This document shows positions 5,701 through 23,041 of a stretch of 23,041 bases of DNA, piece after piece; the stretch's first letter is position 1, and every line of letters starts with the position of its first letter. The stretch spans positions 43,939 through 66,979 of the forward strand of contig CAYPEK010000005.1 of assembly GCA_964409645.1 (NCBI GenBank), read 5' to 3'. The notes under the pieces are model-generated. The model saw nothing but the letters and a program-made list of their open reading frames with translations, was not told the DNA's origin and searched no databases. The DNA comes from an uncultured bacterium (lineage in GTDB: Bacteria > UBP15 > UBA6099). Both the position numbers and the translations under genes were made by a program.

Positions 5701-8211
5701 GCTTGACGGCTTGCTTGCCGCGTTCAGCGGATCGTAAACCGACTCGACTTCGTACTTATCGGTGAACCCGTCGCCGTCGGTGTCTTTATTATAAGGATTA
5801 GTTCCTATCGCCAATTCCTGAGAGTTCGAAAGTCCGTCCGAGTCGCAGTCGCCGGAGGGATTCGCCACCGCGTCGCACTTAGCCGCGCAGGCCGGGTCTG
5901 ACTTCGTGATCGTCACCGCGCTGTTGAACGCGTTGCAGTCCACGCCGTTCAGAACGAGGTCGCCGTCGCAGTCCGCGTATGGATCGGAGTTGTTGCAGCC
6001 GCAAAGCGTGTCTTCGTCCACCTTGCCGTCGCCGTCGTTGTCGATCCCGTCCTGAGATTCCTCGTCAGCCTTACCGTCGCGGTCGTTGTCCTTTGCGTCT
6101 CCGCAAACCATGTTGACGAGCACGCACGAACCGGCGGTCGAGCCGGCCGTTGTGTAAACCCACTGGCAACCCACGGACGCGAAGCACGTGTCCTTAGTCG
6201 TCAGCGCCGAGCATCCCGTCGCGGTTGACATGTTGGCGGGCGCGTCCTCGTCGATCAGACCGTCGAAGTCGTTGTCGATCCCGTCTATGGGGTCTTCGCC
6301 GATACGGCCGTCGCAGTCGTTGTCGATCCCGTCGCCCGGCGTCATTGTCGTTATCGACGGAATGCACGAGAAGCTGTTGATGATAACCGAAGCCACGGCG
6401 CTCTTGCCGCCGGGGATGTCCGCTTCAACCGTGAGCGGATTCTTCGGTCCTGTCTGAATCTGCATTTCCGCCTGAGCGTAATACTTACCGTCGCTCGCCG
6501 CGCCGGAGAGTCCGGTGATCGGCATCAGCGTCGAGTTACCATAAAGCGTTCCGGCGTCATCGTGGAAATTCACGAGCAAAGCGCCCGAGAACGCACTTGC
6601 CGATTTAACAACCACTCTCGCCTTGACCCCCGTCAGCCCGTTCTGCCACACGCGGGTCGGCGTGAGCGTCAGGCTCACATCCTCGATCACGAGTCCGAGC
6701 GCCGCGGCGTCCGTCGTCGCGCCCGAGTTCACTATCACTCTCGTTTCCTGCCCATACTGATCTTTCGCTACAAATTCGATCGATTTCGTGCAGTCTTTGA
6801 GGAACAATCCCACTCTCTCGAACATACCGTTGTCGAATTTCAATTGGGAATCGTTCAGAAGATTCGTTCCGTCCATTATCAACGACGCGCCCGGCGTAAC
6901 CGTTCCCGAAATGTTGACGTACGGGCAAGCCGTGAAACCTTCCGACGGGCTGTTGATCGTGAGTTCCGGCGGCCCTACCACATCGAGACTCACCGTCTGC
7001 GCCGCCGAGCATTCGATATTCTGCGCCGAGCACTCAACCGGAATGCTCAGTTCGCCCGCCGCGCCGAACGATACCTCGCCCGAGAACGAACCGCTTGCGT
7101 TCGCCTGAACCGTGGCATCGCCGATCTTGCATGTCGCGCCGGGAACTGTCGTTCCTTCAACCACCACCGAAGCGGCCGAAAGCGCAATCTCCGTAACATC
7201 CGGTTTGCTTATCGATACTTTACATTCTATTTCCGTTGTGCCGGTGGCCGTCTCCACCTTGGCCGTCGCGGTCGCGGTTCCGGTTGTTGTGTCAACCGTC
7301 GCCGTGCCTGTTGCCGATTCGACCTTGTCGAGCGGCTTGCCCACGCAGCGTCCGTTTGCTCCGCAGTCCTGACTGCAACATTCCGAGTTAGCGGCGCACG
7401 CGTCACCGTTCGGGATGCACGCCGTCGCCACCGCCTGCACTGTGCAAACGTTGTCCACGCAACTCTTCGAACAGCACTGCCCGTTGTTCTCGCAGGCCTG
7501 CGATGCCGGAAGGCAGGCGCCGCTCTTGAGCGCGTTGCTCTCGCCGGCGCACTGGCCGTTGTCGCACCTGCCGGACGCGCAGTCGTTATTGTCGTCGCAT
7601 TTATCTATTTCTTCATTAGTGACTTTTTTGGGCGGAGCCGGCGGCTGGCCTGAGTTGACCGATACCTGCTCGCCTCCCGTCGCCGTCACCGTCTGGCCCT
7701 GCGACGTTACGTCCATGATGCCGTCACGCACCGTTACGTTAGTTGTGTTCTCGGGAGTGTTCTCGATATCGCCTTCCGTTCCGCGAACACCGGCGACCGC
7801 CGTAGGGGTCGTAACCTTGAACGATGAATTCGGGTTCTGAAGCTTTTCCGCTTTCAGCTTTACTTTCCCCGAAAACAGATCGACATCCGTCTTCACCGTT
7901 TTAGTCTTCGGATCGATGTCGATGTTCTTCACCACGAAATTGGTGAACGGCGTGAGCTTGATTGTGTTCTGTGAGCTCCATTTGACAACCGCGGATGATT
8001 TCGCGCCCGTCTTAACGGCTGTGCCGTTAGGCAACAGCATATTATCTTTTGCCGCTTGCCAACTCCCTCCCGGCAGCATGACCTGAACGTCGCCGCTGAT
8101 AGCGGTCAGGGTCGCGCTGACGGGGATGGCGCGCAGCTTCACGGGGACTATCACTGCAATGGCAATAAGTACCATTGCAAGCAAAACCCATTTCATGCGC
8201 TTTTTACACAT
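1..8211 (-). CDS. Giant secreted cysteine-rich modular repeat protein, 5' portion only (at least 2,737 aa in window; C-terminus lies beyond the window start). Order of parts: signal peptide, FecR-like domain, CC-containing Cys-knot-like modules, Thr/Gly-rich beta-rich (Ig-like?) region, thrombospondin-type-3-like Ca-binding repeats, long array of Cys-rich repeats of unrecognised type.
   Basis: Reading the minus strand in the frame whose codons end at positions divisible by 3: ATG at 8211 (revcomp of cat 8209-8211) is preceded by GGGAGGG 5 nt upstream (revcomp of 8217-8223), with an in-frame stop just upstream at 8227-8229. A second in-frame ATG lies at 8196. The N-terminus reads MCKKRMKWVLLAMVLIAIAVIVPVKLRA, a charged n-region followed by a hydrophobic core, i.e. 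a signal peptide. I translated the whole frame by hand from 8211 down to position 1 and met no stop. This agrees with the ORF track, which shows no minus-strand ORF in that frame anywhere in 1..8211; the track demonstrably omits ORFs that run off the window edge. Hand-checked segments, e.g. nt 1-120, give ...KLASCSEYIIEYACGADVACTWTGTSCTDMGTSCSGYTDQ. Codon third positions are G/C-rich like the neighbouring genes. The high density of gca/aca triplets on the plus strand is the reverse complement of tgc/tgt Cys codons. Confidence 0.85.
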   Translation of the reverse strand, partial: MCKKRMKWVLLAMVLIAIAVIVPVKLRAIPVSATLTAISGDVQVMLPGGSWQAAKDNMLLPNGTAVKTGAKSSAVVKWSSQNTIKLTPFTNFVVKNIDIDPKTKTVKTDVDLFSGKVKLKAEKLQNPNSSFKVTTPTAVAGVRGTEGDIENTPENTTNVTVRDGIMDVTSQGQTVTATGGEQVSVNSGQPPAPPKKVTNEEIDKCDDNNDCASGRCDNGQCAGESNALKSGACLPASQACENNGQCCSKSCVDNVCTVQAVATACIPNGDACAANSECCSQDCGANGRCVGKPLDKVESATGTATVDTTTGTATATAKVETATGTTEIECKVSISKPDVTEIALSAASVVVEGTTVPGATCKIGDATVQANASGSFSGEVSFGAAGELSIPVECSAQNIECSAAQTVSLDVVGPPELTINSPSEGFTACPYVNISGTVTPGASLIMDGTNLLNDSQLKFDNGMFERVGLFLKDCTKSIEFVAKDQYGQETRVIVNSGATTDAAALGLVIEDVSLTLTPTRVWQNGLTGVKARVVVKSASAFSGALLVNFHDDAGTLYGNSTLMPITGLSGAASDGKYYAQAEMQIQTGPKNPLTVEADIPGGKSAVASVIINSFSCIPSITTMTPGDGIDNDCDGRIGEDPIDGIDNDFDGLIDEDAPANMSTATGCSALTTKDTCFASVGCQWVYTTAGSTAGSCVLVNMVCGDAKDNDRDGKADEESQDGIDNDGDGKVDEDTLCGCNNSDPYADCDGDLVLNGVDCNAFNSAVTITKSDPACAAKCDAVANPSGDCDSDGLSNSQELAIGTNPYNKDTDGDGFTDKYEVESVYDPLNAASKPSSCVTLTTKTTCETDTNCYWNAATSKCSSFYTQVTSTTATTTCIGGQVKASDGTCMCPSGTVWNSTLMVCEMPAYTRCGGKVFDEAVGACVDTCTGGQVADTTTGTCYCPNGTILGPEDYCVSVASCPTANGFIVDTATNSCICNPASTPYYDELQSKCVATCSGGQVGDAIDGLCVCPSGATSMYLDFYAKKCVSTVSTTICPSGTAGAGCDYMVGSGDCDADGITNSVEVANGTEPCVNQTGVQVSDTGVAQKLCPAGTDAEGCDLLSTTKTDCDSDGAANTADECPCMYGSAQNNFCPAAATSCPTGYFLDEFYGSCVTACPSPRVANTETKTCVCPTGTYLDPDSGACSNGCPTGMVPDTTGTCVCGAATPYINPLTGECTAACPAGMSPDTYSNSYCTCPADSYPDYDAGGCICYDGSALDLATKTCPVRDECSIAPKAFGCACTSTSECSQTVSSFCNSVSGVCEPVSGECNSNGVCDYMETAQSCPADCKCGDGYCDAYELSVNSCTVDCSGSTITTCSNGCSFSVASGDCDADTVINSQDGCPCAPGTLASGGCPVCSGLYETCATAADCCDATNVCELDSALMMMVCKSSSTTATCDNDSVCEYYNGETTFSCASDCACDFSGYCDSNESKYWCNDCAAVCGDGFCGFDQGTEDNATCPQDCMCDLDGVCEAGESAGWCANDCACIESGMPALGPADCCSGIYDECTGMCAATEPTDADTDGIPDSCDSCPTEAGSTYNNGCSVQCLTDEQCVGNASGAYCDVCNGFVCVSTRPANMDNDLLPDVCDMCPDVAGIPDNEGCPAGYCMDNYQCGAYMACDKTNNTCVSCDLTVGDGVCCNGEQSTDCGSGCEAYSDSASCSTNSACTWMVESCVPVDGCNVVTDQTTCEGNLSCVWDTTYGLCFTNNGTCVPAGQGCVPGGTVGCCNGVCTETTSGYVCANEVLCESVTDQSTCQVSFNCGWNYTAGNCYTNYGDCQLIHANESDCLNDMMERCEWDATNSYCHFTQAGICSQHMDEATCGADTNCQWDYTYTYCGVAQSVVDCSMATDEAMCTSYGCTWSTETSTCSTGSCLSLGTDCTSGGTCCYPYSCVDNGYGVSSCVESTFCGDAACNGGETTMYCPMDCCPSLADEATCSSDVYCSWDTGNSQCVAGGAIGCSAYTDQASCNNNSSCYYDGVSGCMEFYDSANCGFFSGDSNWCTIHGTYCTWDGTSCYAGGPQCTGYTDETSCTTDSNCTWLTEYSACVVSSSGCSAYANQTECNGNSGCVWESTYCTEFTGEAQCMYFDETNCSSLHGGYCTFTTYCVGINAAACQVITNETDCVNAAGTYGCTWNGTSCDVGGVACITYGADCTSGGTCCSPFVCLDNGYGVSSCTDATVCGDTVCSGTETTITCPSDCCLSYPDETSCSSDVYCSWNGTESKCYAGGSLTSCTNYVDQVACNADVACVWESTWCEGLYNEAQCMYFDQTACGTHSICTYNGTECLGVSAAFCASILNEVDCTANNVSYGCVWDSGLSTCNVGTACLAYGVDCMSGGSCCDPYVCMNDGFGNYSCMNQPTCGNTSCEPGESTMYCPLDCCQNYTDETTCTSDSYCAWDSGYSLCVMNGGSGCGSITDQASCNTYSASCYWNTDYSTCQEFTDAVSQCSYLSADTMWCNMHGAFCTFNGTDCVSLTGGCISYTDQATCEADANCNWNALSTQCDQDLADCTGYIYETSCNTDTECTWNGTSCEAIGVSTCASYMDQTTCMNDATCTWTGAFCVMTNACTSYAETGCVSDPTCWWDQTNAYCELCPISPPYPIGCACTSGTECNSGICGSGNLCEMSAASCSSYSDETSCIGGTTCIWSGSISACFDKLASCSEYIIEYACGADVACTWTGTSCTDMGTSCSGYTDQ
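5740..6345 (-). repeat. Thrombospondin-type-3-like Asp-rich calcium-binding repeats within the giant protein
   Basis: Translated motifs DGIDNDCDGRIGEDPIDGIDNDFDGLIDEDA, DNDRDGKADEESQDGIDNDGDGKVDEDTLC and GDCDSDGLSNSQELAIGTNPYNKDTDGDGFTDKYEVE. The D-x-D-x-D-G-x-x-D-x-x-D pattern is typical of TSP3 and OmpA-associated Ca-binding repeats. It shows on the plus strand as repeated gtcgccgtcgttgtcgatcccgtc-type runs. Confidence 0.65.
7642..8127 (-). other. FecR-like beta domain at the N-terminus of the giant protein
   Basis: Translated segment ...TAVKTGAKSSAVVKWSSQNTIKLTPFTNFVVKNIDIDPKTKTVKTDVDLFSGKVKLKAEKLQNPNSSFKVTTPTAVAGVRGTEGDIENTPENTTNVTVRDGIMDVTSQGQTVTATGGEQVSV. The alternating beta pattern with a central V-x-G-V-R-GT-E/F and a following V-x-V-x-x-G motif is what I recall of the FecR domain family (PF04773). 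Assignment is from memory, not from a search. Confidence 0.5.
8128..8211 (-). other. Predicted Sec signal peptide of the giant protein
   Basis: MCKKRMKWVLLAMVLIAIAVIVPVKLRA: basic n-region (KKRMK), about 18-residue hydrophobic h-region, A-x-A-like c-region (LRA). Exact cleavage site not determined. Confidence 0.6.
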
Positions 8212-8470
8212 AAATTCCCTCCCGATTTAATAAGGTTGTTTTTAGACAATGAAAAAATAATAATGCTGATACTATATTTGTTATTTTGAAGTTTATTCAA
8301 CATTATCACACAATCAAATCGAACATTACAATATATTTTACCACATAACAAGGTTTATGTGAAGTCCCTTTTTTTTCAGCCATTTATGGAACTTTTTTCC
8401 CTCCTTGCATGTCATAAATAAAAGGACATAAAAGTACGTCTTTAGTTTACCTATGATTTTATTGCTTGTC

Positions 8471-14003: not shown

Positions 14004-14398
14004 CCGTCGGTTCCCCCTTATGTTTCCTTCCCCGGTAATCCTTTTCCAGCAATTATTCCATAATGCAATTCTCGTTTCAAGAGCAAGTATGTGTCAAAAC
14101 GCGATATGCCTTTATTCCCCCCTTCTTTCCGCCTTCGATGGATGTTCGATATTCATTTTGTGCATTAAGCACGCGTCAGCGAGCGACCCCTCTTTTCCTT
14201 TGTGTCTTCGTGCCTTTGTGGTGATTTCTCAAAAACGCCTTCTTCATCACACAGCTACCGTATGCAATTTTCTTACGAGGTTGAACCTTGAACTAAAGGA
14301 AAGTAAAGTTATATTGTCAAAAACGGCGATGCGGCGGGCAGCCGGCTGCGGGCGGCTGCTGCGGGCAAGCGCCGGAATATCTACTGGCGGGGTGTGGG

Positions 14399-15520
14399 AT
14401 GAAGATCACAAAACAAAACTTAGACCTGCTCGAAAAGAAGTACAAAGGATACATCAAAGGCACTGCCGTGAGCGAGTTCTTCAAGGAGTACGGCATACGA
14501 TTCGCCGCGGGCCACTGGTGCGCGGGCGATTTCCTCGACCGGTTCGCCACAACGGGATACGCCTGTGAAGGCGAATGCGACTCCGGGATCGTTCCGCAGA
14601 TGGAGCGCGTCGCTGTATCCGGCTGCGAGGGAATCGAGTTCCACGAACAAGTTTTCATCGACTCGAAATTCAAGAAGGATCCCGCAACTATCGGCCTCGT
14701 TAAGAAAAACCTCAAACGGCTGAAACTCACGCCGACAAACATGAATACGAACCTGTTCACGCATCCGCTCTGGAAGCTCGGCGGCATCACGAACCCCGAT
14801 CCGAAGATACGGAAGGAAGCGCTGCGCGTCGCGCTGCAGGGCGTCGAGATCGCGGACGAGGTGGGCTGTTCGAGCGTCGCGCTGTGGCCGGGGTCGGACG
14901 GCTGGGATTACAACTTCGACTGCGATTACGGCGATCTGCTGAACCGCTTCATCGACGGCTGCATCGCCATGAATAAGAAGGCAAAATCGTACGGCCTGAA
15001 GTTCGGGGTCGAGGCGAAACTCTACGAGCCGCGCGAGGGCAACATGGTGATCTCGACGACGGCGAAAGCGATGCTCGTCGCGAAGGAAGTCAACCGCGTG
15101 TGCGGCGGCGCGAACATGGGCGTCGCGATCGACTACGGCCACGAGATGATGTGCGGCATCGAGCCGGCGGACATGCTCTTCACCGCCAAGCGGTTCGGGG
15201 TGCCGATCACCAACTTCCACGTCAACAACGCAAAGTATAAAAGCAACGACGAGGACCGCTGCGCGGGCACCGGCGACAACTGGGCGATGGTGGATTTCTG
15301 CTACGCGGCGATCATCACCGGCTACGGCGGCTGGTTCGGCGAGGACCAGTTCACGTACCGGCAGGACCCGGTCCGCGCGATGACGCTCTCCCGCGAGATG
15401 TTCGCGAACCTGATGAAGAAAGCGCTGATTATCTACAAGCGGCGTGACGCTCTGAACAAGGCGCGCGCGGGCGGCGATTCCTCGCTCGTCATCGATGTCG
15501 TAAAGGACGTTCTCATTTAA
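14399..15520 (+). CDS. Xylose-isomerase (class I XylA)-like TIM-barrel sugar isomerase, divergent, 373 aa
   Basis: Blocks matching class I XylA from memory: [12 protein letters not shown] vs RFTFGLWTVGWQG; IEFHEQ vs [34 protein letters not shown] vs [40 protein letters not shown] vs FAIEPKPNEPRGD; GHEMMCG vs GHEQMAG. Divergent points: WGGREG becomes WPGSDGW; one predicted metal-ligand Asp is Asn (FHVNNA); there is an extra N-terminal extension of about 30 aa. Confidence 0.75.
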   Translation: [373 protein letters not shown]

Positions 15521-15562
15521 AGAAAAGCTTGGAACCACGGATGAACACGGATAAATATAAAT

Positions 15563-15664
15563 CGCTCCCATGCTCCGCGTGGGAGCGTGTCCCCGGACGC
15601 TCTGCGTCCGAGGAACCGACGCGGAGCGTCGGCAAGCGGCGTTACCACGCGGAGCGTGGTAACG
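15563..15664 (+). promoter_or_regulatory. Array of three consecutive strong hairpins sharing the motif GCGGAGCGT in the isomerase-AOR spacer; the last is followed by a U-rich tract (terminator or attenuator-like)
   Basis: Hairpin 1: cgctccca-(9 nt)-tgggagcg, 15563-15587, 8 bp stem. Hairpin 2: gacgctctgcgtc-(9 nt)-gacgcggagcgtc, 15596-15630, 13 bp stem with one G-U. Hairpin 3: cgttaccacg-cggag-cgtggtaacg, 15640-15664, 10 bp stem. After it comes aTTTccgtaaTTTcTc...gTTTaaaTcTTTc. Alternative pairing gagcgt...acgctc (15582-15601) is also possible, so the hairpins could compete. Confidence 0.5.
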
Positions 15665-15726
15665 ATTTCCGTAATTTCTCCGTGTCTCTGTGTTTAAATC
15701 TTTCATAATGACGGAAGGCAACTAAT

Positions 15727-17580
15727 TTGGGCTCGCAATACTACGGATACACTGGAAAAATGCTGTACATCGATATGTCGTCTCTGACTTCCGAGGAGCG
15801 CGATACGCCGGAGTCGCTCGTGCGCGACTACATCGGAGGCCGCGGGATGGCGGCGCGGATGCTCTGCGATCTTGTCCCGGCGGGCTGCGACCCGCTCGGC
15901 GAGGACAACGCGATTATCATCGCAACGAGCGCGCCGACAGGCACGAACGCGCCGACCGCCGGACGCGGCCACATGGTTTTCAAATCGCCGCTCACGGGCA
16001 CGATCGGCTCGTCGAACTCCGGCGGCGACTGGGCCGCGCATCTGAAGTCGGCGGGATACGACGCGCTCGTCATTCTCGGCCGCGCGAACAAGCCGACGCT
16101 CATCTCGATCGACGGCGCGGAGGACGGCGGACCGGCAAAAGTTACGTTCGAGGACGCGGGCGGCGTGTGGGGGCTCGACGTCCACAAAACGTCGGACACG
16201 ATCCTCGGCTCGCCGGAGCGCAAGGGCTCGCGCGGGCTGTTCATCGGCCCGGCCGGCGAGCGGCTCGTCCGCATCGCGGCGGTGATGAACGAAAAGAACC
16301 GCGCGTACGGCCGCGGCGGCCCCGGCGCGGTCTTCGGCTCGAAAAACATCAAAGGCATAATCGCGCGCGGGTCGCGCAAGACAACCATTGCGGATAAAGA
16401 GACATTTGACGCCGGGCGCAACCACGCGCTTTACAAGCTGCGCGCATCGCCAAGCACGAAACGCATCATGCGCGAGCTCGGCACCGCCGGACTCGTCAAC
16501 CTCATAAACTGGATCGACATGTTGCCAAGACGCAACTACTCATCGACCGTGCACGACCAGTCCGACCTCGACCGCATGTGCGGCGAGGCGATCGCGGACA
16601 CCGTGCTCGAAAAAGCGGGCGGCTGCTACCGCTGCCCGATCATGTGCGCGCGCCACACGCGCACGCCGAACGGCCGCTCCGGCGAAGGCCCGGAGTACGA
16701 AACCGTCGTCCTGCTCGGCCCGGTGCTCGACATCTACGACCTGCCCCTCATAACCGAGATAAACTACCTCTGCAACGAGCTCGGCATGGACACCATCTCG
16801 CTCGGCGGCACGCTCGGCGCGGCGATGGAATGCGCGGAGCGCGGAATACTGCCGGACCTGCCGGGCGCGGATAAGTTGCGCTTCGGCAATATAGACGGAC
16901 TGCTCGACGTCGTGAACAGCATCGCCACTCGCGAGGGCGTCGGCGACCTGCTCGCGGAGGGCTCCGCGCGCATGACCGCATCGCTCGGCGAACCCGGACT
17001 CGCGATGGCCGTCAAGGGCCTCGAAATGCCCGCGTACGACCCGCGCGCGTCCTACACTCAGGCGCTCGGCTACATGACGAGCCCCACCGGCGCGTGCCAC
17101 CTCCGCGGCGGCTACGCGGTATCGCTCGCGTTCTTCGGCGGCAGCAAGGAAATCCCGCGCTTCTCCATCCGGCAAAGTCCGATGGCGGTCTTTAACGTGC
17201 AAAACGTCGGCATTATTCAGGACTCGTCCGGCATGTGCCGGTTCACGGGCTACGCGTTCGGGCTGGACGTCCTCGCACGGCTGCTCAGCGGCTCGTCCGG
17301 GTTCGATTTCTCGGTCGAGAAGCTCGAATTCATCGCCCGCAGGATCGCGACACTCGAACGGCTGTTCAACAACGCCGCCGGTTTCACCGAGGACGACGAC
17401 ACGTTGCCGCCGAGGTTCCAGACCGAACCGCTGCACACCGACGGTGCGGACCGCGTGATGTCGCCGGAGCTGATCCGCACCCTGCGCGAGGCGTACTACG
17501 AGATCAGCGGCTGGGACAAAGCCGGCCGCCCGAAACCGGAAACGATCGAGAAATTCGGCATCGCGCCGATAAAAGTTTAA
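15727..17580 (+). CDS. aor: Tungsten-containing aldehyde:ferredoxin oxidoreductase (AOR family), 617 aa
   Basis: TTG start with GGAAGG 8 nt upstream. Strong family blocks match Pyrococcus AOR from memory: N-terminal YGYTGKMLYIDMS (YGNWGRFIRVNLS), YIGGRGMAARML, KSPLTG, GRGGPGAVFGSKNIKGIIARG, the 4Fe-4S and pterin region CYRCPIMCARHT (CYACPIGCGRV), GEGPEYE, AYDPRA, GACHLRGG. Confidence 0.93.
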   Translation: MGSQYYGYTGKMLYIDMSSLTSEERDTPESLVRDYIGGRGMAARMLCDLVPAGCDPLGEDNAIIIATSAPTGTNAPTAGRGHMVFKSPLTGTIGSSNSGGDWAAHLKSAGYDALVILGRANKPTLISIDGAEDGGPAKVTFEDAGGVWGLDVHKTSDTILGSPERKGSRGLFIGPAGERLVRIAAVMNEKNRAYGRGGPGAVFGSKNIKGIIARGSRKTTIADKETFDAGRNHALYKLRASPSTKRIMRELGTAGLVNLINWIDMLPRRNYSSTVHDQSDLDRMCGEAIADTVLEKAGGCYRCPIMCARHTRTPNGRSGEGPEYETVVLLGPVLDIYDLPLITEINYLCNELGMDTISLGGTLGAAMECAERGILPDLPGADKLRFGNIDGLLDVVNSIATREGVGDLLAEGSARMTASLGEPGLAMAVKGLEMPAYDPRASYTQALGYMTSPTGACHLRGGYAVSLAFFGGSKEIPRFSIRQSPMAVFNVQNVGIIQDSSGMCRFTGYAFGLDVLARLLSGSSGFDFSVEKLEFIARRIATLERLFNNAAGFTEDDDTLPPRFQTEPLHTDGADRVMSPELIRTLREAYYEISGWDKAGRPKPETIEKFGIAPIKV

Positions 17581-17629
17581 TTAATAGAAATTGACCGCGC
17601 GCAACACGCGCTTAAACGGAGTTGTCATA

Positions 17630-18991
17630 ATGAAAACGCAAAGACCGCCGGAGGAAAAGACGCAGCAGATCGTCACGCTCTTCAAGGCCATCGGCGCCGC
17701 CGCGCTGAAGATCGACATCGAGGACTCGCACAGCGGCAACATCGCGACGAAATGGGTGGATGAAGACGGCACGATCCACATGGCGATCACCGCCACCGGC
17801 TCGCAAAAGGGCGACCTGAAAGACACCGACATCTGCTTCCCGGGGATCGACCGCACGACGTACGGGCACTACAAAGCGTCGTCCGAGACCGACATTCACG
17901 CGCAGATTCTTCTGCAGCCGGGCGTCGGCGGTTCTTTCCACGCACACACGAAACATGCCGTTATCGAGTCATTCGACGACAGGCCGAAGCCGCTCGAAAC
18001 GCCCATCACGCCGTTGCGGCCGCTCGATCCGCTCGGATACCATCACATCGGCAAAGTGCCTGTGGAATGGTTCGCGGTGCCGAGCGGATCGCCTGAGATG
18101 GCGCGGCTCATTCCGGAGCACCTGTCGAAGAATATCGCGATGATAATCCACGCGCACGGCACGTTCAGCCGCGGGCAAAGCGTGCAGGAAGCATTCTACC
18201 GGGTCGCGCTCGTGGAAAACCTCGGCCGAGTGCTCTGGTTCCTGCGCATTCAGGGGCTGGACTCCGCCGCGATCGCGGACTACGCCTACCAGAATCCGGA
18301 GAAACACTTCCCGTTTGTACCGACTCTCTTCACGCCGGACCGCGACGGCGAATGCGACTTCAGCGACGAGCCGGACACGGTGGCGGAATTCCTCAAAACC
18401 GGCCGCCGCATCTTCGAGTCCAAGCTCTCGCCGTTCCACGCCGGCTCGCTCTCGCTCCGCGGAGCGAACACGCTGCTTTTCACGCCGAAAGCGTCGATGC
18501 CGACCGGTCTCCCCGGCCCGCTGTGGGAAAAGCCGCTCGAAAGCGATCCGAACGATGAGGCGGAACTCGCGTTTCACAAGAAGATTTATCAGAACAGCAC
18601 ATTCCAGTCGATCGCGCACACCTACCTCGCGGAGGCGGAGGCGGTCGCGTGGTCGGTGCATCCGAAATTCTCGCCGGACCCCGACCATCAGGGTCGCGAC
18701 GAGGACAAATCGACGTACATAGTGCCGGTTGATGCGGAAGGCAGTTTCCTTTATTTGAAAATTCCGGTGCTGTCGCCGACAGCGAATTTCGAGGAGATTC
18801 TTCGCGCGCTCCACGACTACCACATGATAATCGTGCGCGGGCGCGGCGTGTTCGCGATCGGCGAACAGTCGCTCTCCGAAGTGCTCCACCGCGTGTCGCC
18901 GATCCGCGACATCTGCTATTACAGAATATGCGCGGCGATGCGAAAGCTGAACTTCCTCAACCTCGAACCGAAGAACGCGAGAAACTGGTGA
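17630..18991 (+). CDS. Tandem class-II aldolase/adducin-fold protein (N-terminal domain with intact His ligands, C-terminal domain degenerate), about 454 aa
   Basis: The track ORF starts at TTG 17591. I prefer ATG 17630 (MKTQRPPEEK...), which has GGAG 8 nt upstream. Domain 1: SHSGNIATKW...ITATGSQKGDL...ASSETDIHAQI...GGSFHAHTKHAV, i.e. the SGN(I/L)S, TPSG-like, E, and H-x-H zinc-ligand pattern of the fuculose-P aldolase / AraD / MtnB family. Domain 2 (from about aa 270): AGSLSLRGANTLLFTPKAS...IAHTYLAEAE...MIIVRGRGVFAIGE. It has the same fold signature but only one His where H-x-H is expected. Confidence 0.75.
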   Translation: MKTQRPPEEKTQQIVTLFKAIGAAALKIDIEDSHSGNIATKWVDEDGTIHMAITATGSQKGDLKDTDICFPGIDRTTYGHYKASSETDIHAQILLQPGVGGSFHAHTKHAVIESFDDRPKPLETPITPLRPLDPLGYHHIGKVPVEWFAVPSGSPEMARLIPEHLSKNIAMIIHAHGTFSRGQSVQEAFYRVALVENLGRVLWFLRIQGLDSAAIADYAYQNPEKHFPFVPTLFTPDRDGECDFSDEPDTVAEFLKTGRRIFESKLSPFHAGSLSLRGANTLLFTPKASMPTGLPGPLWEKPLESDPNDEAELAFHKKIYQNSTFQSIAHTYLAEAEAVAWSVHPKFSPDPDHQGRDEDKSTYIVPVDAEGSFLYLKIPVLSPTANFEEILRALHDYHMIIVRGRGVFAIGEQSLSEVLHRVSPIRDICYYRICAAMRKLNFLNLEPKNARNW

Positions 18992-18997
18992 GAAAAG

Positions 18998-19288
18998 CAG
19001 TAGCGAGGATAGAGTAGCGAGGGAAACAACAAAAACAAGAATATAGAATATAGGATGCAGAATATAGCAAAAGACAAAAATGCAACTGGCAACTGGTAGC
19101 TACAAATTAGGAAAAAACCGAGCCGCGAGCGCAAACAAGCGGTCGCGGTGAAGGATGAAACAACAAAACGAATAAAAGCAAAACAGGGACTGGCAACGCA
19201 GTTTTGTCGCGGTGCCTGTACAGTTTTAAGTAGTGAGAAATAATGAAACGAATAAGTTTTTTTGTTTTTTACTCGATGCTCGCTACTG
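18998..19288. repeat. Repeat-rich noncoding element of about 290 bp flanked by terminal inverted repeats (CAGTAGCGAG ... CTCGCTACTG); possible MITE-like element or long structured leader of the permease gene
   Basis: Left end 18998-19015 is CAGTAGCGAGgatagagt. The revcomp of the right end 19271-19288 is CAGTAGCGAGcatcgagt, matching at 15/18 positions with the 10 outer bp perfect. Internal direct repeats: AGTAGCGAGG x2 (18999-19008, 19013-19022), (G)AATATAG x3 (19039-19069), AACTGGC x2 (19091-19104). There is an internal hairpin acaaaac...gttttgt (19164-19209) whose loop contains ACAGGGACTGGC. No ORF of credible composition is present. Confidence 0.45.
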
Positions 19289-19314
19289 AAAAAATATTGT
19301 CGGGGTGCTGAAAG

Positions 19315-20238
19315 GTGAAAAAATTAAGCAGTGTGATCGGCCCGCTTGTCGGCTTGATTATTATCGGCGCGTTTCTCGCGATCCGGACGGATACGTTTCT
19401 TACGGCGCCGAACCTGATGAACATCGTGCGTCAGGTGTCAGTCAACTCGATACTCGCGGCGGGAGCGACTATGGTGATCCTGCTCGGTGGCATCGACCTC
19501 TCCGTCGGTTCCGTGCTGGCTCTTGCGGGCGCGGTTGCAGCGTGGGCGCTGCTGAAATTCGGCATCCCGGCGGGAATAGCCGCCGGGCTTGTGGTGGGGC
19601 TCGCAGCGGGCGTTTTCAACGGCGTCATCATCTCCTACGGCCGCGTCGCGCCGTTCATCGTCACGCTCGGCTCGATGACGATCCTTCGCAGCCTCACTCT
19701 CGTTTTCACGGGCGGCAAACCGATCTCAAACTATCCCGAAGCATTCCTCAATATCGGCGAAGGCAGTGTGGCCGGAATCCCTGTCCCGGTGCTGATCGCG
19801 GCGGTCGTGCTTATCCTCATCCACTTTCTGCTGCGCACAACCCGATTCGGGCGCTACGTTTATGCGGCCGGCGGAAATGAGGAAGCAACCCACCTCTCCG
19901 GCATCAATGTTAAACTTTTGAAGACGATGGTTTATTCGATAGCGGGTATTCTTGCGGCAATCGGCGCGATTGTATTTATCGCGCGACTCGATTCGGCGCA
20001 GCCGCAGGCGGGGATGGGCTTCGAACTCGACGCAATCGCGGCGGTCGTCATCGGCGGCACATCGCTCTCCGGCGGCGCGGGCGGAATCCCCGGCACAATC
20101 CTCGGCGCACTAATCATGGGCGTTCTCCGCAACGGACTCAACCTGATGGAAGTCTCAGCGTTCTGGCAGCAGGCATTCATCGGCTCGGTTATCATAGTAG
20201 CCGTTCTCGCGGACCAATTACGCAAAAAAGGCCGCTGA
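19315..20238 (+). CDS. ABC transporter permease, sugar (ribose/xylose RbsC-like, BPD_transp_2) type, 307 aa
   Basis: GTG start per track. N-terminus MKKLSSVIGPLVGLIIIGAFLAIRTDTFLTAPNLMNIVRQVSVNSILAAGATMVILLGGIDLSVGSVLALAG is the characteristic RbsC-like N-terminus (...N..NI.RQ.S..gILA.GMT.VIltGGIDLSVGS.lAL.G). There are multiple TM segments. The C-terminus lies within a terminator hairpin. Confidence 0.85.
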   Translation: MKKLSSVIGPLVGLIIIGAFLAIRTDTFLTAPNLMNIVRQVSVNSILAAGATMVILLGGIDLSVGSVLALAGAVAAWALLKFGIPAGIAAGLVVGLAAGVFNGVIISYGRVAPFIVTLGSMTILRSLTLVFTGGKPISNYPEAFLNIGEGSVAGIPVPVLIAAVVLILIHFLLRTTRFGRYVYAAGGNEEATHLSGINVKLLKTMVYSIAGILAAIGAIVFIARLDSAQPQAGMGFELDAIAAVVIGGTSLSGGAGGIPGTILGALIMGVLRNGLNLMEVSAFWQQAFIGSVIIVAVLADQLRKKGR

Positions 20239-20302: not shown

Positions 20303-20782
20303 TTATGCGACGTCTCTTTTTTCCTCGGAGTCGCGAAGCGATACACATATTTCTATCCTGTGCTCGCCAAGAAACATCGGAACCACAAGCGATTTGGAAC
20401 AGTTAAGTAACGACAACTCGGAGCCGTCTATAACATAAGGCGGCGTAATTTCACTCATAAAACCTTCCTCCGATAAACCCGTCATCGCATTCGAGACCAA
20501 GATGTCGGTCAATTCCGCCACTGCGCTCTTCCCAAGCTCATCGAGCCCGTTATTCTCTCCGACCATCTTGACGGCGATGCTTTCCGCGCAAGCATTCGAC
20601 ATCGACATCACAACCTGTCCGTTCAGACGGCCGGTGACGCCGATTACCACAGCAAACTCTCCTGTTGTCCTGAATAATCTATTCTTTAAATAATACCGTC
20701 CTATGGTCGGTTTCTCGCCAACCATTTCCCCGAATATTTTCGTAATAGACTCGTTGAAGTAATTCAGCTGCTCGACCTTCAT
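20303..20782 (-). CDS. cheX: CheX-family (CheC/CheX/FliY-like) chemotaxis phosphatase paralogue 1, about 160 aa
   Basis: The track ORF 20303..20833 starts MYTLRIVFRAKKREGQQMKVEQ. I prefer the internal ATG at 20782 (MKVEQLNYFNESITKIFGEMVGEKP...), which has GGGAGGGG about 6 nt upstream and the canonical CheX N-terminus. The stretch VVIGVTGRLNGQVVMSMS plus the ITPPYVIDG and VVPMFLGEHRIEI motifs match CheX. The putative catalytic pair reads AELTD (E-x2-D), not the E-x2-N of CheX2. Confidence 0.75.
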   Translation of the reverse strand: MKVEQLNYFNESITKIFGEMVGEKPTIGRYYLKNRLFRTTGEFAVVIGVTGRLNGQVVMSMSNACAESIAVKMVGENNGLDELGKSAVAELTDILVSNAMTGLSEEGFMSEITPPYVIDGSELSLLNCSKSLVVPMFLGEHRIEICVSLRDSEEKRDVA

Positions 20783-21086
20783 TTGCTGCCCCTCCCGTTT
20801 TTTTGCACGGAAAACTATCCGCAGGGTGTACAACTTTCCCGGCGTAACTTTTCCGGCTCCCTCTCTTTTTGTGCTTCCAACTGGTTAGACGTCGATTTTG
20901 GCTGTTTTCCGGTAATTTTTTTAAAATTATTTTTTGTTTGTGAAAAGCAACTCTGTACTTGCCCATTGTCAATTCAAGGCTCGCCGGACAGCAACACAAT
21001 GCCGCATGGCAACAAATTTGTCCAAAACAGCATTTCTATAGTTGAATTTTGCTAATTGAAAACAAATTGTCGCTGCCGACGGCCTG

Positions 21087-21563
21087 TTAAGCCGCCGTTT
21101 CGGCAAGCGTGAGGTTAACTTCCAGAGTTCCCGCGCCCATGTTCAGAGGAATCACCACCGTTCGGGAATTTGGCGGCCCCGTGATCGCCATCCCCGAGCC
21201 GGTAAAAACATGCGGCGGGGTTATATCGCACGTGTAACCGGCCTCCGCAAGTCCGATAGTCGCATTCGCCGCGATCATATTCGACATCTCCGCCAATGCA
21301 CTCTGTGCCACCTCATCGAACGCGTACACCTTCGGCTCCATCATCATCGCAGCCGCGATGTTCTTTGCGGATTCCTCGGAAAGCGTGATCACCATGTGCC
21401 CCGAAAGATGCCCCGTCACGCCCACAACCACCGCCACGTCATTCGATTCGTACGTAAGATGATCTCTCAAAAAAACCTTTCCCATCGCAGGTTTTTCAGA
21501 AATCGACTCCTCGACGATCTTGACCACGGACTTTATGAACGGATTGAGATATTCAACTTTCAT
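21087..21563 (-). CDS. cheX: CheX-family chemotaxis phosphatase paralogue 2, 158 aa
   Basis: MKVEYLNPFIKSVVKIVEESISEKPAMGKVFLRD...VVVGVTGHLSGHMVITLSEESAKNIAAAMM...LAEMSNMIAANATIGLAEAGYTCDITPPHVFTG...VVIPLNMGAGTLEVNLTL is a near-textbook CheX, with the E-x2-N motif present. GGAG lies upstream of the ATG. Confidence 0.82.
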   Translation of the reverse strand: MKVEYLNPFIKSVVKIVEESISEKPAMGKVFLRDHLTYESNDVAVVVGVTGHLSGHMVITLSEESAKNIAAAMMMEPKVYAFDEVAQSALAEMSNMIAANATIGLAEAGYTCDITPPHVFTGSGMAITGPPNSRTVVIPLNMGAGTLEVNLTLAETAA

Positions 21564-21810: not shown

Positions 21811-21837
21811 TTTTGAATGTAAGGACAATATTCAAAA
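21811..21837. promoter_or_regulatory. Perfect 8-bp inverted repeat TTTTGAAT-N11-ATTCAAAA, 28-54 bp upstream of the tail-fibre-like gene start (candidate operator)
   Basis: 21811-21818 is ttttgaat, the spacer is gtaaggacaat, and 21830-21837 is attcaaaa. It lies within the AT-rich divergent promoter region between cheX2 and the repeat protein gene. Confidence 0.3.
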
Positions 21838-21864
21838 TCCAAAAAAATCGGTGGTGGAACCATC

Positions 21865-23041
21865 ATGAGATCATTCCGAAGACTAATTATACCCGCCTTT
21901 ATTGCGGGAATTTTAATTGTTCATGCGGGGGCTTTGTTCGGCGCCACTCCACAACTAATAAACTATCAAGGTTACCTGAAACAGAGCGGCAAGCCGGTCG
22001 ATGGCAACCTGAGCATGGAATTTGCCTTGTACAATGCACTGACAGGCGGTTCGCAGCTCTGCACCAGCGGCACGCAGACAATCACTGTGACCAAAGGCCG
22101 CTTCAACTTTCAGATCGGTTCCGCCGGCTGCGACCTCTCGACTATCGACTGGAATGCAAACTCCGTTTATCTCGAAATCATTGTTAATGCTTATACCCTT
22201 TCCCCCCGCGAACAAATTATTGCGAGCGGGTACTCTCTTTCGTCAGACAAACTCGACGGACTCGACTCGACCGCGTTCCTGAAAACAACCGGAGGCAGCC
22301 TTACCGGCGCGCTCGGCGTGGCGGGCGCTGTCTCGGCTTCCGGAACAATCAGCACCACTACAACAAGCAGCTTCAACGCACCCGCAAGCGGATACTTCAA
22401 TTTCGGCGCCCTCCTCGGAACAACCGGTTATGGTTTCCGAGACAACGCAGGCGTGCTCGAATACAAGGACAGCTCCGGAAGCTGGATAGCTTTCAATACA
22501 CTAGGGGCTGCAGGCAGCTACTTAGTCACAACGGGCGGCACGATGACGGGGCAGATTACTTCGACGGTCGCCACCGGCACCGCCCCGTTCGTGATTACAT
22601 CCGGCACGAAGATCACAAACCTCAACGCCGACACGCTCGACGGGATCGACTCGTCGGCATTCGCAACCGCCACTCACACTCACACTGGTTACATGGCTTC
22701 GACTACCGATAACTGGGTTAACACAACCGGCGACACCATGACCGGACAACTCACTTCGACGGTTGCCACAGGCACAGCCCCGTTCGTTATCACGTCCGGC
22801 ACTAAAGTCACCAACCTCAACGCCGACACACTCGACGGGATCGACTCGTCGGCATTCGCAACCGCCACTCACACTCACACCGGCTACATGGCTTCGACTA
22901 CCGACAACTGGGTCAACACAACCGGCGACACAATGACCGGTCAACTCACTTCGACGGTTGCCACCGGCACAGCCCCGTTCGTGATTACGTCCGGCACTAA
23001 AGTCACCAACCTCAACGCCGACACACTCGACGGGATCGACT
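21865..23041 (+). CDS. Secreted tail-fibre-like repeat protein, 5' portion only (392 aa in window; runs off the right edge)
   Basis: ATG at 21865, with an in-frame stop upstream at 21820-22. Hand translation: MRSFRRLIIPAFIAGILIVHAGALFGATPQLINYQGYLKQSGKPVDGNLSMEFALYNALTGGSQLCTSGTQTITVTKGRFNFQIG..., a signal peptide followed by an N-terminal module of the form INYQG-x-L-(x6-7)-P-(x1-2)-G-(x3)-M-x-F-x-(I/L)-Y. From memory this module opens many bacterial and phage proteins annotated as tail-fibre-domain-containing. It is followed by 65-aa tandem repeats containing LNADTLDGIDSSAFATATHTHTGY. It is absent from the ORF track because it is open-ended. Confidence 0.75.
   Translation, partial: MRSFRRLIIPAFIAGILIVHAGALFGATPQLINYQGYLKQSGKPVDGNLSMEFALYNALTGGSQLCTSGTQTITVTKGRFNFQIGSAGCDLSTIDWNANSVYLEIIVNAYTLSPREQIIASGYSLSSDKLDGLDSTAFLKTTGGSLTGALGVAGAVSASGTISTTTTSSFNAPASGYFNFGALLGTTGYGFRDNAGVLEYKDSSGSWIAFNTLGAAGSYLVTTGGTMTGQITSTVATGTAPFVITSGTKITNLNADTLDGIDSSAFATATHTHTGYMASTTDNWVNTTGDTMTGQLTSTVATGTAPFVITSGTKVTNLNADTLDGIDSSAFATATHTHTGYMASTTDNWVNTTGDTMTGQLTSTVATGTAPFVITSGTKVTNLNADTLDGID
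22531..23041 (+). repeat. In-frame 195-bp (65-aa) tandem repeats, 2.6 copies in window, inside the tail-fibre-like gene
   Basis: Copies run 22531-22725, 22726-22920 and 22921 onward. Copies 2 and 3 are about 96% identical, with only synonymous differences in the part visible. Copy 1 is about 88% identical with 3 aa changes. Unit: TG(G/D)TMTGQ(I/L)TSTVATGTAPFVITSGTK(I/V)TNLNADTLDGIDSSAFATATHTHTGYMASTTDNWVNT. The minus-strand ORF 22522..22944 in the track is an artefact of this repeat. Confidence 0.9.

Follow-up and report, generated by a model that had tools for sequence, protein, structure and literature searches.

The question raised by the locus described here is which sugar, and by which route, would be degraded by four proteins encoded one after another: a xylose isomerase-like protein (ISO), a tungsten-type aldehyde:ferredoxin oxidoreductase (AOR), a protein with two consecutive class II aldolase folds (ALD2) and a sugar-type permease of an ATP-binding cassette (ABC) transporter. 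Their open reading frames (ORFs) all lie on the + strand within positions 14399-20238 of a stretch of 23,041 nucleotides, referred to below as the window, from contig CAYPEK010000005.1 of an uncultured bacterium of the lineage UBP15 (assembly GCA_964409645.1). An earlier interpretation of the same DNA from its letters alone, the sequence-only reading, had placed the four genes exactly where they are found, and its gaps of 206 bp between ISO and AOR and of 49 bp between AOR and ALD2 are exact; ALD2 and the permease are separated by 323 bp (Table 1). The answer favoured here is that the region is probably a variant of a phosphorylative operon for the catabolism of L-rhamnose, a 6-deoxy-hexose, in which AOR would oxidise lactaldehyde, a toxic by-product. 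L-rhamnose is the most likely sugar, and the support for the pathway comes entirely from comparative genomics.

The evidence starts from AOR and ALD2. An alignment of ALD2 was scanned against one genome per GTDB species and the best 80 loci were kept, most of them from Aminicenantes, the others coming from Acidobacteriota, Phycisphaerales, Gemmatimonadaceae and further groups. AOR stands directly upstream of ALD2 in 62 of the 64 loci with at least 2 kb of upstream DNA, being 53-57% identical to its counterpart in the window; the two exceptions are among the loci in which the AOR match is split into fragments. A 4-bp overlap of the AOR stop codon with the start codon of ALD2 is predicted for 46 of 65 loci (median gap -4), which points to translational coupling as the usual state of the two genes, and the pairwise distance matrices of both proteins are correlated (r = 0.94; Mantel 0/999). 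In a search of 5.8 billion proteins, the top AOR homologues shared contigs with the top ALD2 homologues. The lineages carrying the pair include Aminicenantes, Acidobacteriota, Planctomycetota, KSB1 and other uncultured sediment lineages. ISO lies outside this core, being found with the pair only in MAG168 (L010/L011) among the 80 loci. Judged from gene order across these genomes, conservation extends to the two genes AOR and ALD2 and not to the four-gene block, so that the co-directional module of the sequence-only reading stands as regards its genes, their order and their gaps, its conserved core being restricted to AOR-ALD2 and its isomerase being exchangeable. AOR and ALD2 are probably co-inherited as a functional couple, and possibly also as a physical one, keeping free lactaldehyde low. 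In the locus with the closest relative of ISO (L007, 85% identity), the isomerase is followed directly by the permease, without AOR-ALD2 between them, and AOR-ALD2 would therefore have entered or left this junction as a cassette; the comparison of the two arrangements shows the indel itself to be real.

The contexts in which the pair occurs, like the gene content, the integrity of domains and motifs and the conserved adjacency, were observed directly. They point to rhamnose above all in the clade closest to the window, whose AORs are 70-75% identical to that of the window. One of its loci (L171) carries on one strand the genes for rhamnulokinase, RhaA, AOR, ALD2, permease and substrate-binding protein (SBP), in that order, the kinase scoring 534.6 bits with TIGR02627 (cut-off 528) and the isomerase 709.5 bits with NF002203 (cut-off 572), while its AOR and ALD2 are 70% and 63% identical, respectively, to those of the window. 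A metagenomic contig (JGI 3300075153) shows the order FGGY-RhaA-AOR-ALD2, and the succession AOR-ALD2-permease is seen in L171, L172 and L173. In L010 the order is SBP-FGGY-ISO-AOR-ALD2, with identities to the window of 76, 72 and 67% for ISO, AOR and ALD2. The kinase missing from the window is thus present in cis in both L010 and L171, as is an SBP. Since the gene order recurs in relatives, the arrangement is more than chance. In all four loci of the closest clade that have an isomerase, its gene directly precedes AOR, the slot being filled by ISO in the window and in L010 and by RhaA otherwise.

Farther away, RhaA (PF06134, 625 bits) is encoded near the pair in L012, L039, L043, L056 and related loci, accompanied in L039, L043 and L056 by a rhamnulokinase-like FGGY kinase (517 bits). 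The loci L079 (Phycisphaerales) and L033 (a metagenome-assembled genome, MAG, of Gemmatimonadaceae) contain instead an isomerase of the RhaI type (529 bits, cut-off 531) together with a rhamnulokinase-like FGGY kinase (483 bits). The pair is accordingly a neighbour of three unrelated isomerase types (RhaA, RhaI and ISO), and the isomerase is, by these gene contents, an exchangeable slot open to RhaA, RhaI or the XylA-like family. Concerning what follows the pair in Aminicenantes, a fused LutB/LutA-like protein with LUD, Fer4 and CCG domains (731 bits with the LdhH model) is encoded directly after ALD2 in 15 of 37 fully flanked loci, a LutC-like protein being present in 9. ALD2 was the sole class II aldolase-fold ORF detected in the 82 pair-bearing loci, which leaves it as the only aldolase candidate in the loci with rhaB and rhaA.

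From these observations we infer every substrate, the electron acceptor, the co-transcription and the protein complex discussed below. The sugar would enter through the RbsC-type ABC permease, the ATPase and the binding protein being encoded elsewhere; ISO, standing in the place of RhaA, would convert the aldose into the ketose, and an FGGY kinase not encoded in the window would produce the ketose-1-phosphate. The N-terminal zinc domain of ALD2 would then split L-rhamnulose-1-phosphate, or a similar ketose-1-phosphate, into dihydroxyacetone phosphate (DHAP) and L-lactaldehyde, and AOR would oxidise the latter to L-lactate, with ferredoxin or flavodoxin receiving two electrons of low potential. 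The oxidation by AOR would stand in for an NAD-dependent dehydrogenation of lactaldehyde, as carried out by AldA or by the RhaW part of RhaEW, or for its reduction by FucO, and in other lineages the lactate would be converted further into pyruvate by an adjacent enzyme of the Lut/LdhH type. Because the acid/aldehyde couple has a very low potential, oxidation by AOR yields reduced ferredoxin, whereas reduction to propanediol consumes NADH. An L-rhamnulose-1-phosphate aldolase in ALD2 and a lactaldehyde oxidiser in AOR are the simplest assignments, because the pair adjoins rhamnose isomerases, rhamnulokinase and genes for L-lactate oxidation, and because ALD2 is the sole candidate for the aldolase. 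The idea of the sequence-only reading, a deoxy-sugar route in which an aldolase releasing DHAP and a hydroxy-aldehyde feeds a ferredoxin-dependent AOR, is thus supported by the presence of the pair inside bona fide rhaB-rhaA operons of the closest clade, and it is also backed by RhaA or RhaI, rhamnulokinase-like FGGY kinases and the LdhH-like L-lactate-oxidising protein near the pair in other lineages.

As for the individual proteins, AOR has the complete architecture of its family, both of its domains scoring (Table 1) well above the Pfam cut-offs (29.8 for AFOR_N and 27 for AFOR_C). Its closest solved relative is the AOR from Pyrococcus furiosus (1AOR; 432 bits), to which it aligns over the full length; its motifs CYRCPIMC, GMCRF, PEYE and ACH align with CYACPIGC, GLCLF, PEYE and GCH of 1AOR, the cysteines of the [4Fe-4S] cluster (CxxCxxxC...C) as well as the active-site glutamate and histidine near the metal being conserved. 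On these motifs the protein is assigned to the AOR sensu stricto type, with a tungstopterin as its presumed cofactor and ferredoxin as its presumed acceptor, and it is proposed to be the enzyme oxidising L-lactaldehyde. It shares with the archaeal enzyme the single-subunit type, no AorA/AorC-like genes being found near it, but its clade is obligatorily linked to ALD2, whereas the P. furiosus enzyme, considered to oxidise a broad range of aldehydes derived from amino acids, is not known to have an aldolase partner of its own. With regard to the electron acceptor, a flavodoxin gene directly after ALD2 in L043 and L056 gives a hint. It should be noted that public gene callers start AOR at ATG 15760 (606 aa, P0241); the TTG start adopted here, which is preceded by a GGAAGG ribosome-binding site, is favoured because the alignment with the P. 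furiosus enzyme sets in as early as residue 6 of the longer, 617-aa protein. Beside the pair, 0.1-1.5 kb upstream of AOR, a ThiS/MoaD-like protein of 92 aa is encoded in 26 and a THEP1/DUF2478-like NTPase in 29 of the 37 fully flanked loci; these two genes, neither of which is present in the window, stand downstream of a type IV pilus block (L013, L038 and most Aminicenantes), and their products are probably cofactor-maturation helpers for the tungstoenzyme.

ALD2 was examined in an alignment of 20 homologues sharing 46-100% identity. Its N-terminal domain retains the whole class II site (G36-N37, S84-S85-E86, H104, H106 and H176), the motifs SHSGN, T54..G57, SSE86, H104-x-H106 and H176-G being invariant in the 20 homologues, with S85 nearly so. 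The C-terminal domain keeps E312 and H330, has Y332 and R403 at the other histidine positions and has lost the Ser-Ser phosphate motif, so that it does not possess a class II site; it is still rich in invariant residues (Q413-S414, E417-V-L-H420). The two domains can be aligned with 25% identity over 73 aa only and the internal repeat is barely detectable at the sequence level, the duplication being recognised from Pfam and from the structure model. The latter, calculated with AlphaFold2 (pLDDT 88.8, pTM 0.91), gave L-fuculose-1-phosphate aldolases as the best matches in Foldseek (2fk5, target TM-score 0.83, E = 3e-11), in agreement with a FucA-like fold. The PDB matches cover a single domain (query TM-score ~0.37), and none of the solved structures matched by Foldseek has the tandem architecture.

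In comparison with FucA (2fk5 from Thermus thermophilus and 1fua from Escherichia coli), one domain of ALD2 thus matches with target TM-scores of 0.83-0.85, and the zinc-binding histidine triad, the catalytic glutamate and the phosphate-binding motifs are all present in the N-terminal domain; FucA, however, is a single-domain homotetramer of ~200 aa, whereas ALD2 and its homologues are tandem proteins of 440-455 aa with one active and one degenerate domain, the sequence identity is ~25% and the FucA models score below their cut-offs. Among the NCBIfam models, PRK08660 ('aldolase') is the best for ALD2 with 142 bits (cut-off 203), followed at a distance by MtnB with 48.9 (137), FucA_Meth with 30 (250) and RhaD with 17.6 (170). 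The counter-case named in the sequence-only reading, a placement of the protein with MtnB, is therefore not borne out by the score. No domain of the short-chain dehydrogenase/reductase (SDR) type was found in ALD2 by Pfam, and TIGR02632 (RhaEW) was not among its matches. These scores set ALD2 apart as a subfamily of its own, clearly separate from MtnB, RhaD and AraD, and its motif-complete N-terminal domain is proposed to be a ketose-1-phosphate (L-rhamnulose-1-phosphate) aldolase, while the C-terminal domain may be a pseudo-subunit or a docking module. A bolder version of the pathway, in which AOR and ALD2 form a physical complex channelling L-lactaldehyde from the aldolase site to the tungsten centre, as a ferredoxin-dependent parallel to RhaEW or to aldolase-dehydrogenase channelling enzymes, the dead C-terminal domain serves as its docking or tunnel module and ISO represents a third class of rhamnose isomerase, the whole making up a non-orthologous low-potential rhamnose pathway, can be put forward only tentatively and is rather doubtful.

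ISO belongs to a separate and strongly conserved family of XylA-like proteins. Its scores remain far below the equivalog cut-offs of TIGR02631 xylA (92.7 versus 447), TIGR02630 (21 versus 533) and RhaI_grampos (51.4 versus 531), and PF06134 (RhaA) gave no match in the Pfam scan; membership in XylA, contradicted by the score and by the lack of a kinase partner in the window, thus fails along with that in RhaA and RhaI, and the sequence-only reading's own counter-case, a bona fide XylA of a standard xylAB locus, does not apply. The nearest solved relatives are 3ktc (9e-28) and then class I XylA, at ~30% identity or less. Family members with 61-85% identity occur across Elusimicrobia, KSB1, Nitrospirota, Desantisbacteria and others, many candidate phyla being represented, with H82, E205-x-K207, D245-x-G-H248, H274-x-N276, D284-E-D286 and D316 invariant. 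Of the seven metal ligands of class I XylA (E181, E217, H220, D245, D255, D257 and D287), alignments with 1xim and within the family show five as identical in ISO (E205, H248, D284, D286 and D316), the equivalence of D287 having been read by us from the EDQF motif, and two as changed (E217 to D245 and D245 to N276), these changes, seen in sequence alignment, being invariant in the family.

As far as sequence alignment shows, ISO shares with class I XylA and 3ktc the TIM barrel and the E-x-K, H, D-x-D and terminal Asp positions, but its family has a conserved 33-residue N-terminal segment of its own and is without the long C-terminal tail of XylA. With the RhaI-type isomerase it has in common the motifs D-x-G-H and F-H-x-N at aligned positions, although the overall identity is only 23% and the equivalog score is missed widely. 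What the sequence-only reading pointed out, an extension at the N-terminus and changes in the metal motifs, is real, with the refinement that these are family-wide traits and that the motif changes are common to the RhaI type. ISO may work like a rhamnose isomerase while being a member of neither the RhaA nor the RhaI family.

How far this can be taken depends on the surroundings of its family, which were surveyed in 80 metagenome loci. FGGY kinases were found in 10, class II aldolase-fold proteins of 220 aa in 9 and zinc-dependent alcohol dehydrogenases in 8 of them, and one locus combines a rhamnulokinase-like kinase, an SDR, a FucA-like aldolase and ISO. Because these contexts are mixed, the chances that ISO is a rhamnose isomerase are about evenly balanced; a uniform link of the whole family to rhamnose was rejected on the same survey, and the family may be of broad specificity or functionally split. 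A D-apiose route was also rejected as the explanation of the locus. One ISO homologue is labelled 'D-apiose isomerase' and 3ktc, a Pectobacterium 'xylose isomerase', is presumably of the D-apiose isomerase (ApsI) type; the identity, however, is ~30% only, and that pathway uses a transketolase and not a class II aldolase.

For the permease, RbsC is the closest NCBIfam model (310 bits, cut-off 398). It is 78% identical to its counterpart in L171, 81% to that in L173 and 86% to that in L007, and is, on this identity and position, the orthologue of the permease following ALD2 in rhaB-rhaA operons. An SBP gene comes after the permease in L171 and L007; the SBP of L171 is 73% identical to that of L010, the range between ISO-type and RhaA-type loci being 73-81%. 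In the window, the permease domain is present with neither an ATPase nor an SBP, and thus does not make up a complete RbsC-type importer. The relatives, too, each have a single RbsC-type permease gene and no ABC ATPase (L171 13262-15194, L173 10453-11394, L007 11359-14394), which suggests a shared ATPase encoded elsewhere.

Several points nevertheless weigh against a rhamnose operon. The set of 80 loci is dominated by one phylum, so its counts are not independent events, and most of the Aminicenantes loci have no sugar isomerase or kinase within 10 kb of the pair. The window does not hold a complete phosphorylative rhamnose operon, the kinase being absent from all 23 kb: tblastn probes for FGGY kinase, RhaA, RhaI, SBP, Lut, MoaD and flavodoxin found none of them in the whole window, in line with the remark of the sequence-only reading that no kinase is visible, and with genes for kinase, ATPase, SBP, Lut, ferredoxin and flavodoxin all missing from it the pathway is incomplete in cis. 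The structured spacers of 206 and 323 bp mean that the four genes may not share a single transcript. ALD2 reaches no equivalog cut-off in NCBIfam (FucA, RhaD, AraD, MtnB, OtnC), and in structure it is matched best by FucA and not by RhaD. The kinase of L010 is XylB-like (299 bits, versus 53 with the rhamnulokinase model) and its SBP RbsB-like (80 with the RhaS model), and for this reason the sugar of the ISO-type loci could differ from rhamnose. Finally, a member of the ISO family is accompanied in L135 (9770-13488), where the three form an L-arabinose-like trio, by a ribulokinase (681 bits, above the cut-off) and an AraD-like L-ribulose-5-phosphate 4-epimerase; the family is also seen in housekeeping neighbourhoods (L105-type loci) and alone in L004.

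The best-surviving alternative builds on these last points and keeps the same enzyme logic for another sugar, either L-fucose, which would also yield L-lactaldehyde, or L-lyxose, D-arabinose or another pentose yielding glycolaldehyde. It is consistent with ISO being an equivalog of neither RhaA nor RhaI, with the kinase and SBP of L010, with fuculose-1-phosphate aldolases as the best structural matches of ALD2 and with the ribulokinase and AraD-like protein of L135, but the transport proteins speak for one and the same sugar, since the rhaB-rhaA locus L171 and the ISO-type loci (window, L007, L010) have orthologous permeases (78-86% identity) and SBPs (73-81%). Moreover, the pair of the window clusters with the pairs linked to rhaB-rhaA (63-74% identity), and the neighbourhoods of the pair, where annotated, showed no gene of the FucI or FucK type, the search having included no probe specific for fucose. 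Another sugar is thus considered unlikely.

Less probable again, with a small chance left to it, is that ALD2 is some other enzyme of the class II aldolase fold—an epimerase, a dehydratase or a decarboxylase—and that AOR has some unrelated aldehyde or acid as its substrate, possibly working as a reductase. The fold does host the AraD epimerase, the MtnB dehydratase and the OtnC or HMPD decarboxylases, ALD2 lies below the equivalog cut-offs, its conserved C-terminal domain without a canonical site hints at a non-standard function, and AORs are reversible enzymes. Against this stand the full FucA-type set of zinc, glutamate and phosphate motifs kept in the N-terminal domain and the rhaB-rhaA loci without an alternative aldolase candidate, and that AOR is an obligatory and translationally coupled neighbour is most simply explained by a partner which produces an aldehyde.

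It is very improbable that the pair serves a housekeeping salvage of the DHAP-shunt type, acting on 5-deoxyribulose-1-phosphate or methylthioribulose-1-phosphate with oxidation of the acetaldehyde or methylthioacetaldehyde formed, so that its adjacency to sugar genes would be secondary. Most Aminicenantes pairs do lie in a conserved non-sugar neighbourhood (type IV pilus, MoaD-like protein, NTPase), ALD2 shows weak matches to MtnB-type models and the DHAP-shunt aldolases are likewise of class II; yet the genes after the pair are for lactate oxidation and not acetate or ethanol genes, at least three lineages have it flanked by bona fide rhaB-rhaA or by a RhaI-type gene with a rhamnulokinase-like one, and the neighbourhoods, in their annotated parts, showed no gene of the MtnK/MtnA or DrdK/DrdI type. 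An AOR acting as a general aldehyde detoxifier and standing beside sugar genes by chance, for which the broad specificity of AORs, their mostly unassigned roles in bacteria and the broad activity of WOR1 might speak, is hardly credible and already strongly disfavoured by the near-constant adjacency, the frequent 4-bp overlap and the mirror-tree correlation across several phyla, and by nearest AOR homologues that are all linked to ALD2.

The preferred reading, a rhamnose pathway with AOR as lactaldehyde oxidiser, can be compared with two known systems. The first, RhaEW, is a bifunctional L-rhamnulose-1-phosphate aldolase/L-lactaldehyde dehydrogenase, made up of an aldolase of class II and, fused to it, an NAD-dependent dehydrogenase domain on which the aldolase activity depends, and lldEFG (Lut) genes occur within its regulons (Rodionova et al. 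2013, PMC3870299). Both RhaEW and AOR-ALD2 would couple a class II aldolase step to the conversion of L-lactaldehyde into L-lactate, both stand inside rha loci in place of RhaD, and both are sometimes followed by lldEFG/Lut genes for the step from lactate to pyruvate. RhaW, however, is a fused NAD-dependent short-chain dehydrogenase, whereas here the partner is a separate tungstopterin/[4Fe-4S] AOR presumed to use ferredoxin or flavodoxin, and ALD2 is a tandem protein with a degenerate second domain and without the SDR domain; by this comparison AOR-ALD2 is a functional analogue only. In the second, the E. coli-type pathway of RhaA, RhaB and RhaD plus AldA or FucO, the logic of isomerase, 1-kinase, aldolase and lactaldehyde disposal is the same, and RhaA and RhaB have orthologues in L171; ALD2 nevertheless stands for RhaD and AOR for AldA/FucO, and the window, in addition, has ISO for RhaA and no RhaB.

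In full-text searches of the literature, neither the pairing of an AOR with a class II aldolase nor a rhamnose pathway dependent on AOR was found described, apart from one sentence in a paper on MAGs that AORs might detoxify lactaldehyde derived from rhamnose (PMC9324843). The tungsten oxidoreductase WOR1 of Eubacterium limosum oxidises lactaldehyde among other aldehydes in vitro and is described as electron-bifurcating (NAD and ferredoxin), with roles in lactate metabolism and aldehyde detoxification (PMC11725836); it resembles the AOR proposed here in its activity on lactaldehyde, but is neither paired with an aldolase nor located within a sugar operon. What is new is thus the set of three non-orthologous replacements (isomerase, aldolase and lactaldehyde enzyme) together with the structurally novel tandem aldolase, the kind of rhamnose pathway being known.

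The layout of the locus is summarised in Table 1. It should be pointed out that the ORF of ALD2 opens at 17591, whereas its homologues all begin at the residue encoded by ATG 17630, which on the alignment is the true start.

Table 1. Genes, domains, spacers and promoter-like signal of the locus (positions refer to the window)
Feature	Position	Strand	Remarks
ISO	14399-15520	+	373 aa; PF01261, 70.5 bits
AOR	15727-17580	+	617 aa, TTG start; AFOR_N 229.6 bits, AFOR_C 378.7 bits
ALD2	17630-18991	+	453 aa; PF00596, two matched stretches
Permease	19315-20238	+	307 aa; PF02653 (BPD_transp_2), 147.8 bits
ALD2 N-terminal domain	17630..18305	+	class II (Zn) aldolase domain, motif set complete
ALD2 C-terminal domain	18362..18991	+	second class II aldolase fold; metal and phosphate sites lost
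ISO-AOR spacer	15521..15726	+	structured; four nested palindromic units
ALD2-permease spacer	18992..19314	+	A-rich, structured; promoter-like match 19217-19244
Sigma-70-like promoter match, TTGAAC-16-TATATT	14288..14315	+	consensus scan; ~85 bp upstream of ISO start

Concerning the spacers, the four palindromic units between ISO and AOR are built on ACGCGGAGCGT, with pairing possible within or between units; all four copies of the motif in the window are confined to this spacer. Its predicted fold has -94.4 kcal/mol (z = -7.45), none of 200 shuffled sequences being as stable, and no Rfam family was matched in it. The palindromes may represent a REP-like element, a sequence serving processing or stability, or the scar of a cassette junction. 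The spacer between ALD2 and the permease carries the short direct repeats GTAGCGAGG, AATATAG and GCAACTGG, a long-range stem (-85 kcal/mol, z = -5.2) and an A-rich/U-rich hairpin just before the permease start, its equivalent in L171 having 33 bp only; the permease possibly has its own transcription start. The promoter-consensus scan of the region returned 6 sites against 1.9 expected, the one upstream of ISO being a weak pattern match only. Two further candidates were rejected. A riboswitch or other known RNA upstream of AOR, such as one for the molybdenum or tungsten cofactor (Moco/Tuco), was not matched in Rfam at the gathering thresholds over the window, the sole miRNA match (E = 0.5) being meaningless; and a compositional signal of a horizontal cassette, at which a 1-kb profile with higher GC over AOR and ALD2 had hinted, was dropped as the gene-level differences in GC and in GC at third codon positions (GC3) are modest (0.59, 0.65, 0.61 and 0.59).

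A few neighbouring features deserve mention. The genes on both flanks are unrelated to the four genes, those upstream being one for an SDR epimerase-like protein and one of the SPFH type. Directly downstream of the permease and convergent with it, two tandem CheX/CheC-like paralogues are encoded on the - strand (20303-20833 and 21087-21563). CheX is typical of spirochaetes and Thermotogae, and the pair of paralogues, together with a flagellin gene near the operon of L171, suggests a motile host. The left end of the window is occupied by a giant ORF on the - strand (1-8226, at least 2,742 codons), open at that end, the only reason for its absence from the ORF list, and starting near 8211 with a signal-peptide-like N-terminus (MCKKRMKWVLLAMVLIAIAV...); with a FecR domain and a bacterial TSP3 repeat as its only Pfam matches, it probably encodes a huge secreted or surface protein. 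At the opposite end, an open-ended + strand ORF (21823-23041) contains a tandem repeat of 195 bp (65 aa; 2.6 copies at 91% identity, 22527-23041) with the motif ...TGTAPFVITSGTKVTNLNADTLDG...; it was without a match in the Pfam scan and looks like a gene for a repetitive fibre or surface protein.

In the relatives, genes of the URO-D-like kind (uroporphyrinogen decarboxylase/methyltransferase fold) recur next to pair-bearing loci of the RhaA type (L056, 5122-6288 and 18651-19748) and near members of the ISO family (L004 6254-7462, L104, L120, L125, L132, L135, L138, L145 and L163), the processing of modified, e.g. methylated, deoxy-sugars being one possibility. After ALD2 in L010 (11039-12862), the nearest relative with the trio, come genes for a second TIM-barrel protein of the AP_endonuc_2 type with weak similarity to CbiR and for an activase of glycyl-radical enzymes (TIGR02494, 337 bits), although in that locus no such radical enzyme was called.

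Tungstoenzymes of the AOR family are widespread in bacteria, and to our knowledge almost none of them has an assigned physiological substrate. The position of the pair inside rhamnose operons offers such a candidate substrate for this AOR clade, L-lactaldehyde, which is directly assayable. In the lineages bearing the pair, annotation tools are unlikely to call either a rhamnose aldolase or a lactaldehyde dehydrogenase. The usual assumption is that anaerobes spend reducing equivalents on turning lactaldehyde into 1,2-propanediol or confine it within microcompartments; if the pathway proposed here is true, the conversion of lactaldehyde via lactate to pyruvate would give extra low-potential electrons for H2 formation or for ion-motive energy conservation, the whole C6 skeleton would become usable and anaerobic deoxy-sugar fermentation would have to be modelled differently. 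Should AOR and ALD2 in addition form the channelling complex outlined above, one bacterial AOR clade would gain a specific substrate and the yield of reducing power from deoxy-sugar fermentation would rise.

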